From the NCBI RefSeq assembly GCF_003334315.1, contig NZ_QOWR01000034.1: a DNA stretch of 49,379 nucleotides; one strand, written 5' to 3'. Source of the stretch: Escherichia coli. Its GTDB lineage: Bacteria > Pseudomonadota > Gammaproteobacteria > Enterobacterales > Enterobacteriaceae. The notes under the pieces are model-generated. The model was given only the letters and a program-made list of their open reading frames with translations. It was not told the DNA's origin and did not search any database. The first letter of the stretch is position 1, and each line of letters opens with the position of its first letter. Below are positions 3,815-36,221 of the stretch, piece after piece. The position numbers and the translations under genes were made by a program.

Positions 3815-3912
3815 GCCTGATGCGCTATGCTTATCAGGCCTACATAGTCCCTGCAATATATTGAATTAGCAAGGTTTTGTAGGCCGGATAAGGCGTTCAC
3901 GCCGCATCCGGC
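3815..3912. repeat. BIME: two inverted REP elements between convergent torZ and cmoB
   Basis: GCCTGATGCGCTATGCTTATCAGGCCTACA (3815-3843) and GTAGGCCGGATAAGGCGTTCACGCCGCATCCGGC (3879-3912) match the REP consensus. Confidence 0.8.
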
Positions 3913-13999: not shown

Positions 14000-14320
14000 G
14001 ATTGGTCGCTCGCGCCGCATCCGAAATTGGCAGTGTGCCTGATGCGACGCTATTCGCGTCTTATCCGGCCTACCAGAGATAGCGAACCGTAGCTCGGATA
14101 AGGCGCTCGCGACGCATCCGACATTGGCAGTGTGCCTGATGCGACGCTATTCGCGTCTTATCCGGCCTACGAGAGATAGCGAACCGTAGGTCAGATAAGG
14201 CGCTCGCACCGCATCCGACATTGGCAGTGTGCCTGATGCGACGCTGTTCGCGTCTTATCAGGCCAGCCAGAGATAGCGAACCGTAGGTCGGATAAGGCGC
14301 TCGCGCCGCATCCGACAAAT
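14000..14320. repeat. Tandem BIME cluster: three 97-bp units made of alternating REP palindromes
   Basis: GCATCCGA recurs at 14017, 14114, 14211 and 14308 (exact 97-bp period); each unit holds GCCTGATGCGACGCT...GCGTCTTATC(C/A)GGCC and CGGATAAGGCGCTCGCG REP motifs. Confidence 0.85.
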
Positions 14321-34828: not shown

Positions 34829-35170
34829 ATGATGAAAAAAAGTATTCTGGCGTTTCTGTTACTCACCAGTTCTGCAGCGGCGCTGGCGGCACCGCAGGTG
34901 ATTACCGTCAGCCGTTTTGAAGTGGGTAAAGACAAATGGGCGTTTAATCGCGAAGAGGTGATGCTGACTTGCCGACCGGGTAATGCTTTGTATGTCATCA
35001 ACCCAAGTACCCTCGTGCAGTATCCTTTAAACGATATCGCACAAAAGGAAGTTGCCAGTGGGAAGACTAAAGCCCAACCCATTTCGGTGATTCAGATTGA
35101 TGATCCTAACAATCCCGGCGAAAAAATGAGTCTGGCACCGTTTATAGAACGAGCTGAAAAACTCTGTTAA
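34829..35170 (+). CDS. yebY: DUF2511 periplasmic protein YebY
   Basis: 113-aa ORF with signal peptide, third gene of the yobA-yebZ-yebY unit; terminator follows. Confidence 0.8.
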
Positions 35171-35198: not shown

Positions 35199-35241
35199 TA
35201 AAAAAACCGCCTCAGTTCTTTCACCAGAACGGGCGGTTTTT
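35199..35241. terminator. Bidirectional terminator after yebY (and probable RyeA 3' end)
   Basis: AAAAAAACCGCCTCAGTTCT...AGAACGGGCGGTTTTT, a GC stem flanked by A-run and T-run. Confidence 0.75.
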
Positions 35242-35328
35242 AACATTTAAGCTGATGACCACCGCGCTTTTTATTGACCATTTTGCACGCAAACTGGAAA
35301 ACCTGGCGTCGTCATCTATTCTTAAAGG

Positions 35329-35431
35329 GCAAGGCAACTAAGCCTGCATTAATGCCAACTTTTAGCGCACGGCTCTCTCCCAAGAGCCATTTCCCTGGAC
35401 CGAATACAGGAATCGTGTTCGGTCTCTTTTT
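35329..35431 (+). ncRNA. sdsR: Small regulatory RNA SdsR (RyeB), sigma-S dependent
   Basis: Recalled SdsR sequence matches (GCAAGGCAACTAAGCCTGCATTAATGCC...CGGTCTCTTTTT). A sigma-S-type -10 (TCTATTCTT, 35315-35323) sits upstream and a GC stem plus U-run ends at about 35431. Confidence 0.75.
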
Positions 35432-35564
35432 ATCTGTTAAAAGCCAGAAGCATTTCCTTCGCTGACTTTATAGTCAACCATAACACACACTCTACTGTCT
35501 GAGTCCAGCGTTTTTTAACATTCTTGTTAAGATTATGTGATCTTTAGCGCGGAGGAAAATATTG

Positions 35565-36221
35565 ATGAAACAGCCTGCGCCCGTTTATCAGAGAATTGCG
35601 GGTCATCAATGGCGACATATCTGGCTTTCTGGCGATATACACGGTTGTCTTGAGCAGTTGCGCCGCAAATTATGGCATTGTCGTTTTGATCCGTGGCGAG
35701 ATTTACTTATCTCAGTGGGAGACGTTATCGATCGTGGGCCGCAAAGTTTACGTTGTCTGCAGTTACTGGAACAACATTGGGTTCGTGCGGTAAGAGGCAA
35801 TCATGAACAGATGGCGATGGATGCGCTGGCATCCCAGCAGATGTCTTTGTGGTTGATGAATGGCGGCGACTGGTTTATTGCGCTGGCAGATAATCAACAG
35901 AAACAAGCGAAAACGGCGCTGGAAAAATGTCAGCATTTGCCCTTTATTCTTGAAGTACACAGCCGCACCGGCAAACATGTTATTGCTCATGCCGATTATC
36001 CAGATGATGTTTATGAATGGCAAAAGGACGTTGATTTGCATCAGGTCTTGTGGAGCCGCTCACGATTAGGTGAACGCCCAAAAGGGCAGGGAATTACAGG
36101 TGCTGATCATTTCTGGTTTGGTCATACACCGTTGCGACATCGCGTGGATATTGGCAACCTGCATTATATTGATACCGGTGCTGTCTTTGGGGGCGAACTG
36201 ACTCTTGTGCAATTGCAATAA
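35565..36221 (+). CDS. pphA: Serine/threonine protein phosphatase 1 (lambda-phosphatase-like PPP family)
   Basis: 218 aa from the second ATG; PPP motifs GDIHG, GDVIDRG, GNHE. Confidence 0.9.
   Translation: MKQPAPVYQRIAGHQWRHIWLSGDIHGCLEQLRRKLWHCRFDPWRDLLISVGDVIDRGPQSLRCLQLLEQHWVRAVRGNHEQMAMDALASQQMSLWLMNGGDWFIALADNQQKQAKTALEKCQHLPFILEVHSRTGKHVIAHADYPDDVYEWQKDVDLHQVLWSRSRLGERPKGQGITGADHFWFGHTPLRHRVDIGNLHYIDTGAVFGGELTLVQLQ

Follow-up and report, generated by a model that had tools for sequence, protein, structure and literature searches.

The sdsR/ryeA small RNA pair in the yebY-pphA spacer of an Escherichia coli contig

The spacer between yebY and pphA in the stretch of Escherichia coli DNA analysed here (49,379 nucleotides of contig NZ_QOWR01000034.1, hereafter the window) almost certainly carries the known sdsR/ryeA locus in its K-12 form, that is, two small RNAs (sRNAs) convergently transcribed from overlapping DNA. 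The pair is already known and well studied, and the present copy is an ordinary one that matches the K-12 reference. We found nothing in the sequence of the window that contradicts this explanation. Features, coordinates, identity to K-12, conservation and covariation were determined from the sequence, and expression, sigma dependence, mutual degradation, interference, read-through and targets are taken from published work on K-12 and Salmonella.

The two small RNAs of the yebY-pphA spacer

The spacer extends from the yebY stop codon at 35170 to the pphA ATG codon at 35565; an alternative pphA start, TTG 35562, is also offered in the list of open reading frames. A first-pass annotation of the window had given it as 390 bp. 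The spacer is indeed there, with an exact length of 394 nt. The order of the surrounding genes, yobA, copD/yebZ, yebY, pphA, yebW, yebV and rsmF, is that of E. coli K-12. When aligned with E. coli K-12 MG1655, the spacer is 99% identical, and SdsR and both sRNA promoters are identical. Three differences were observed: A instead of C at 35249, G instead of A at 35264, and one G missing after 35550. Both substitutions are located in the 3′ part of RyeA outside SdsR and their effect on RyeA is probably nil. The missing G (window 35550-35552) belongs to the pphA leader, in a G-run just 5′ of the pphA Shine-Dalgarno sequence. The leader reads GCGCGGAGGAAAA in the window as compared to GCGCGGGAGGAAAA in K-12, and GGAGG is unbroken. 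The MG1655 annotation of the two sRNAs transfers directly to window coordinates, with sdsR at 35328-35431 (+) and ryeA at 35469-35198 (-). The features of the locus are collected in Table 1.

Table 1. Features of the sdsR/ryeA locus in window coordinates
Feature	Position	Strand	Basis or remark
yebY CDS	34829..35170	+	ORF list; MG1655 annotation mapped by alignment
RyeA (SraC) antisense sRNA, ~270 nt	35200..35469	-	Rfam, MG1655 annotation, primers, RACE
Bidirectional intrinsic terminator	35202..35241	both	ends yebY (+, T5 tail) and RyeA (-, U7 tail 35206-35200)
63-aa ORF over SdsR	35274-35465	+	ORF list; judged non-coding
sdsR -35-like TGGAAA, 16-nt spacer to -10	35295..35300	+	putative hexamer assignment
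sdsR -10 TATTCT (35317-35322), C at -13 (35316), then TAA	35316..35322	+	published primers, conservation
SdsR (RyeB) sRNA, ~100-103 nt	35329..35431	+	Rfam, primers, RACE, fold, covariation
SdsR 5′ hairpin	35329-35347	+	followed by the single-stranded conserved core
SdsR middle hairpin	35371-35388	+	precedes the terminator hairpin
SdsR intrinsic terminator	35397..35431	+	11-bp stem 35397-35425, 7-nt loop, CUUUUU tail
Last 23 bp of sdsR, prophage attachment site	35409..35431	both	empty in the window
ryeA sigma-70 promoter, extended -10 TGT-TATGGT (TATGGT 35482..35477)	35477..35485	-	primers, K-12 identity
pphA (phosphoprotein phosphatase 1)	35565..36221	+	ORF list; MG1655 annotation

The whole window was scanned against Rfam at gathering thresholds. 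Two overlapping matches were obtained in the spacer, both over the full model. RF00111 (SdsR_RyeB) matches 35332-35431 on the plus strand with 114.4 bits (E = 1.4e-21, model positions 1-100; gathering 38), and RF00101 (SraC_RyeA) matches 35435-35291 on the minus strand with 175.1 bits (gathering 37). The window has two other matches at gathering level, namely naRNA4/CssrE (RF02564) at 14189-14264 (+), with 61.1 bits against a gathering value of 59.5, which we would guess to be a REP-type repeat, and ES036/CssrF (RF02751) at 3836-3878 (-), with 45.5 bits.

In K-12, SdsR and RyeA have been mapped by primer extension, RACE and in vitro transcription (Choi 2019, PMC6610125). Placing the primers BHI+11R and ERI+104F of that study on the window sets the +1 position of SdsR at 35329. 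The 3′ ends of SdsR, located by RACE at +100 to +102 (Choi 2019, PMC6610125), correspond to 35428-35430. The Rfam match, the MG1655 annotation and this start site thus show that the sRNA drawn on the plus strand at 35329-35431 in the first-pass annotation was placed exactly. The minimum free energy fold of SdsR (-34.8 kcal/mol, z = -4.4) reproduces the three hairpins. With such a z-score, and with a 151-nt sdsR segment at least 99% identical in 5151 of the 5426 complete E. coli genomes, chance is excluded. The proposal that the sRNA has its own terminator also holds, as the terminator scan found the 11-bp stem followed by CTTTTT (fold of -15.8 kcal/mol). As compared to K-12 SdsR (b4433, RF00111), RNA and promoter are identical, without any difference within the RNA, and the position downstream of yebY, the three hairpins and the -10 element with -13C are the same.

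The sigma-S-like -10 element suggested for this sRNA was found as TCTATTCTT at 35315-35323. It contains the C at -13 and the TATTCT hexamer that was mutated experimentally: on the window, primers PM_SdsRF and PM_SdsRR (Choi 2019) swap exactly TATTCT for CTCGAG, a change that abolishes SdsR (Choi 2019, PMC6610125). All the sequence features of the sigma-S type (-13C, TATTCT, TAA, 16-nt spacer) are present within 35295-35325, and the 16-bp spacer and the sigma-S hallmarks of the sdsR promoter have been listed before (Frohlich 2012). The promoter is transcribed in vitro by E-sigma-S alone (Choi 2019, PMC6610125), and RpoS dependence of SdsR has been published for K-12 and Salmonella (Choi 2019; Frohlich 2012).

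On the opposite strand, primers BHIA+10R and 3RACE_RyeAF (Choi 2019) set the +1 position of RyeA at 35469. RyeA therefore starts 38 nt past the 3′ end of SdsR and is ~270 nt long, which refines the earlier description. All of SdsR and the sdsR promoter lie within it, the 38 nt at its 5′ end are unique, and its fold has a z-score of -3.1. The 3′ ends at +261 to +270 determined by RACE (Choi 2019, PMC6610125) correspond to 35209-35200, in the U-run of the 35202-35241 hairpin. Both expectations voiced at first pass, that RyeA covers SdsR from the opposite strand and that it ends at a bidirectional terminator near 35199-35241, are in line with the RF00101 match, the K-12-identical promoter and start site, these RACE ends and the folds on both strands. 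Primer RyeA-p3, placed on the window, swaps exactly TATGGT for CTCGAG (Choi 2019), and the mutant is without RyeA (Choi 2019, PMC6610125). Since TGT precedes TATGGT, the ryeA promoter is of the extended -10 type. It is transcribed in vitro by E-sigma-70 alone (Choi 2019, PMC6610125). No convincing -35 element was found for ryeA, the best hexamers matching at 2/6 positions with a 17-nt spacer or at 4/6 with a 19-nt spacer.

The 35202-35241 hairpin folds with -19.8 kcal/mol on the plus strand and -20.0 kcal/mol on the minus strand (z = -6.7 and -5.1, respectively). Because it is flanked by an A-run and a T-run and folds on both strands, it can serve as the terminator of yebY and, read in reverse, of RyeA. 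A simple sigma-70 and terminator scan missed this yebY/RyeA terminator owing to a bulge, and the hairpin was revealed by folding. Citrobacter and other relatives retain the order A-run, GC stem, T-run with another stem sequence. The 3′ ends of both sRNAs arise by Rho-independent termination (Choi 2019, PMC6610125). Compared with K-12 RyeA (b4432, RF00101), the TGT-TATGGT element, the +1 position, the unique 5′ segment, the terminator and the full antisense overlap of SdsR are identical, and the window differs by the two substitutions at 35249 and 35264. In Salmonella and Shigella, a longer RNA is made from a ryeA -10 element placed ~35 bp farther away from sdsR (Frohlich 2012), whereas the window has the K-12 arrangement.

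Conservation, covariation and interruptions of the locus

The 551-nt segment 35100-35650 is found with 95-100% identity in all 5426 complete E. coli genomes. In order to follow SdsR beyond the species, we searched one genome per species for the core pattern TTAGCGCACGGCT N8-16 AGCCATT. At least 120 loci were obtained, 73 of which, among the matches listed, are from Enterobacterales. Using a covariance model with the three-hairpin structure, 72 hits were re-aligned, representing 62 distinct Enterobacterales sequences. Standard pairs are formed in 98.7% of the cells and compensatory changes on both sides are seen in 13 of the 23 pairs (6/6 in the 5′ hairpin, 6/11 in the terminator), in an alignment that is fitted to the model and in which the outer pairs of the middle hairpin are fixed by the search pattern. 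The observed pairing was equalled by none of 500 column shuffles, and it fell to 20-45% when the partners were slid by 1-3 columns. Covariation across enterobacteria, put forward at first pass as a check of the 35329-35431 segment, thus speaks for the sRNA. A plain MAFFT alignment with RNAalifold missed the 5′ hairpin, its stem being out of register from loop-length differences; realignment to the covariance model recovered it.

Conservation extends to the promoter. All 74 of the 74 Enterobacterales loci examined have a CTA...T match at the expected distance, these four bases being set by the search pattern and the flanking positions being free. At the free positions, -8C is present in 66/74 loci and the TT and AA following the hexamer in 64-72 of 74. 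Moreover, CTGGAAAA is found 16 nt upstream of the -10 element, at a fixed distance, in 73/74 loci. The conservation of the free flanking positions fits the sigma-S type and agrees with the hallmarks given by Frohlich 2012. In nearly all Enterobacterales loci, yebY is on the same strand, 136-236 nt 5′ of the SdsR core. The window shows the same arrangement, with yebY ending at 35170 and SdsR starting downstream at 35329. This synteny and the association of SdsR with Hfq have been reported (Frohlich 2012). Among the Enterobacterales loci examined, pphA directly follows sdsR only in Escherichia coli and in one Citrobacter.

In ~45 non-enterobacterial gammaproteobacteria among the matches listed (loci L006, L013, L014, L024, L027, L029, L031, L034, L039, L056, L063, L064, L074, L076, L110 and ~30 more), the SdsR core (GUUAGCGCACGGCUC-loop-GAGCCAUUCCCCU) was also observed, and the GC-rich terminator behind it is a different one that covaries. 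The carriers include Alteromonas, Idiomarina, Pseudidiomarina, Shewanella, Colwellia, Paraglaciecola and Thalassotalea. At these loci yebY is absent nearby, and a -10 element of the CTAnnnT type often lies 35-45 nt upstream. All 16 of the 16 loci tested match RF00111 above gathering, scoring 48-80 bits. What is conserved matches the processed form of SdsR, whose 5′ ends lie at +31 to +34. The published accounts consulted describe SdsR as enterobacterial.

In ~235 of the 5426 complete E. coli genomes, the spacer is interrupted. As summarised in PMC7380047, Balbontin 2008 identified the last 23 bp of ryeB as a prophage attachment site, and the interrupted spacers fit this known site at the 3′ end of SdsR. 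For instance, in E. coli strain 12867 (L124, 4100-4300), homology to the window ends at 35432 and continues into a lambdoid Rac-like prophage carrying integrase, excisionase, ralR, recT and recE. This strain owes the 3′ half of its SdsR terminator to the phage (CGTATTCGGTCTTTTTTT), and integration of the prophage replaces the ryeA promoter and 5′ end.

Two genomes, FDAARGOS_944 (L122) and 2017-03-3CC (L123), have an insertion sequence inside the SdsR 5′ hairpin (35335-35354). One is an IS1. The other is an ISVsa5 (IS4 family, IS10-like), where the 9 bp 35336-35344 (AACTAAGCC) are duplicated and would resemble the target consensus of IS10. In no other of the 5426 genomes is sdsR itself disrupted. 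The idea of the 5′ hairpin as a recurrent hot spot for insertion sequences was rejected, as the sdsR segment is intact in 5424/5426 genomes.

Control of SdsR, RyeA and pphA in the published model

On the basis of the published data, SdsR would be made in stationary phase from its sigma-S-type promoter and would act in trans by base pairing with mRNAs, like Hfq-associated sRNAs. It ranks among the most abundant stationary-phase sRNAs (Frohlich 2012), and ompD, tolC, mutS and yhcB have been published as targets of its repression in trans. RyeA, started at the extended -10 sigma-70 promoter downstream of sdsR, would traverse sdsR and its promoter and stop at the yebY hairpin. It would act as a sigma-70 antisense antagonist of SdsR in two ways. 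The two RNAs would pair over the full length of SdsR and be degraded together, with the involvement of RNase III, and convergent transcription of ryeA would hinder initiation and elongation from the sdsR promoter. Experiments with promoter mutants showed reciprocal regulation and mutual degradation (Choi 2019, PMC6610125).

Control by the pair would extend to the downstream gene. The SdsR terminator is leaky, so that the sdsR promoter also drives pphA, and read-through from this promoter was shown to give the main pphA transcript (Choi 2019, PMC6610125). This adds to the first-pass picture of the SdsR terminator, with read-through as the chief source of pphA mRNA. Since read-through from SdsR supplies pphA, transcription of ryeA lowers pphA too (Choi 2019, PMC6610125).

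The arrangement recalls type I toxin-antitoxin and other cis-antisense pairs processed by RNase III, in which a fully complementary antisense RNA likewise leads to co-degradation by RNase III. In contrast to type I systems, the SdsR "toxin" is a non-coding, trans-acting sRNA and not the mRNA of a toxic peptide, and SdsR/RyeA adds convergent interference and control of pphA.

Alternative readings and significance

The 63-aa open reading frame that overlaps SdsR, already held at first pass to be almost certainly not coding, is non-coding. The opposite case would be that this frame, or the internal one opened by ATG 35352 (35352-35465; 37 aa, the first ~27 being MPTFSARLSPKSHFPGPNTGIVFGLFL), encodes a small protein, with coding constraint or a dual-function RNA. 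In its favour, no stop codon interrupts the 63-aa frame in the window, in E. albertii or in a second E. coli genome, most Enterobacterales share the internal ATG together with the ~27 codons that follow, and an sdsR-pphA read-through transcript would carry the internal frame with its stop codon. However, the TTG start at 35274 is 55 nt upstream of the mapped SdsR start site and is therefore absent from SdsR and from the sdsR-pphA read-through RNA, and the older upstream (heat-shock) pphA promoter is inactive (Choi 2019, PMC6610125). A Shine-Dalgarno sequence was found neither at the 35274 TTG nor at the 35352 ATG, and the 103-nt SdsR is without a stop codon in this frame. Taking the invariant core as the reference point, we traced the frame through the 70 Enterobacterales loci listed. 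An in-frame stop codon is present 18 nt 5′ of the conserved core in most of them, and the frame is open back to the window TTG in a handful only, including the second E. coli genome and E. albertii. Deletions of 2 nt in the loop of the middle hairpin shift the frame while the stem is kept in Mixta, Pectobacterium, Erwinia and Winslowiella (loop-indel frameshifts at loci L021, L051, L057, L094 and L116), the start codon is absent in this frame in Yersinia similis, and the C-terminal tails are unrelated, with ~13 to more than 150 residues. Substitutions are compensatory in the RNA stems, and neither frame, start nor codon-respecting substitutions are preserved as in a protein-coding gene. PGAP called no CDS over the 63-aa frame in the genomes listed, and NCBIfam gave no match for either short open reading frame. 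Altogether, a small protein encoded here is extremely unlikely. The peptide-like conservation from ATG 35352 is explained by conservation at the RNA level. If the 35352 frame were translated from the sdsR-pphA read-through mRNA, the locus would have a dual function, as sRNA and micro-protein; the missing Shine-Dalgarno sequence, the frameshifts in several genera and an RNA structure that explains the conservation make such translation very unlikely. A further frame, 38 aa long and initiated by TTG, is located within RyeA at 35221-35337 (-) and runs into the terminator. It lies in a segment that is variable between species, has no family match in NCBIfam and is probably spurious.

SdsR might be functional alone, minus-strand RyeA being a mirror-image database match or noise without regulatory role. 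RF00101 is largely a mirror of SdsR and is above gathering also in loci of Alteromonadales and marine gammaproteobacteria without known RyeA, where the SdsR-like strand is the only one that resembles a gene, so that the RF00101 match by itself speaks only weakly for an antisense RNA. Downstream of sdsR, the flank that bears the ryeA promoter is variable among relatives: in some Citrobacter loci the TGTTATGGT element recurs at a distance ~35 nt greater, and E. albertii and C. sedlakii lack it, in agreement with the report that sraC is poorly conserved and has a variable promoter position (Frohlich 2012). In addition, deletion of the sraC promoter caused only a ~1.5-fold change in SdsR (Frohlich 2012). 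Nevertheless, the case for RyeA in the window is built on the promoter, +1 position and unique 5′ segment identical to those of K-12, on a proper U7 terminator on the minus strand, and on experiments in K-12, where RyeA was seen by Northern blot, RACE and in vitro transcription and where a ryeA -10 mutant raises SdsR and pphA (Choi 2019, PMC6610125). That TGTTATGGT recurs in some Citrobacter loci also argues against noise. We therefore regard a locus with SdsR as its sole functional RNA as highly improbable. What a genuine pair does for the cell is a separate matter. The literature describes it as an sRNA-sRNA toxin-antitoxin system, a label that rests on overexpression phenotypes, and the native role is a matter of interpretation. 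The pair could instead time SdsR and pphA with growth phase, through interference and sponging, without being a true toxin-antitoxin system. Indeed, toxicity was observed on ectopic overexpression of SdsR, an RNA that is naturally among the most abundant in stationary phase (Frohlich 2012); promoter mutants shift timing and do not kill, and ryeA transcription, not RyeA RNA, lowers pphA (Choi 2019, PMC6610125). On the other hand, repression of yhcB has been published as a toxic route from which RyeA rescues, and the two descriptions are not mutually exclusive. We hold the timing role tentatively, as a possible description of the pair.

For annotation, the spacer should bear two non-coding RNAs, sdsR at 35329-35431 (+) and ryeA at 35200-35469 (-), and no CDS, and pphA is best regarded as co-transcribed from the sdsR promoter. 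The copy in the window leaves the known sdsR/ryeA picture unchanged. The locus is a textbook case in which an overlapping antisense RNA and convergent transcription set the level of a trans-acting sRNA, and it connects growth phase with RpoS-dependent stress physiology (porins, TolC efflux, mismatch repair).
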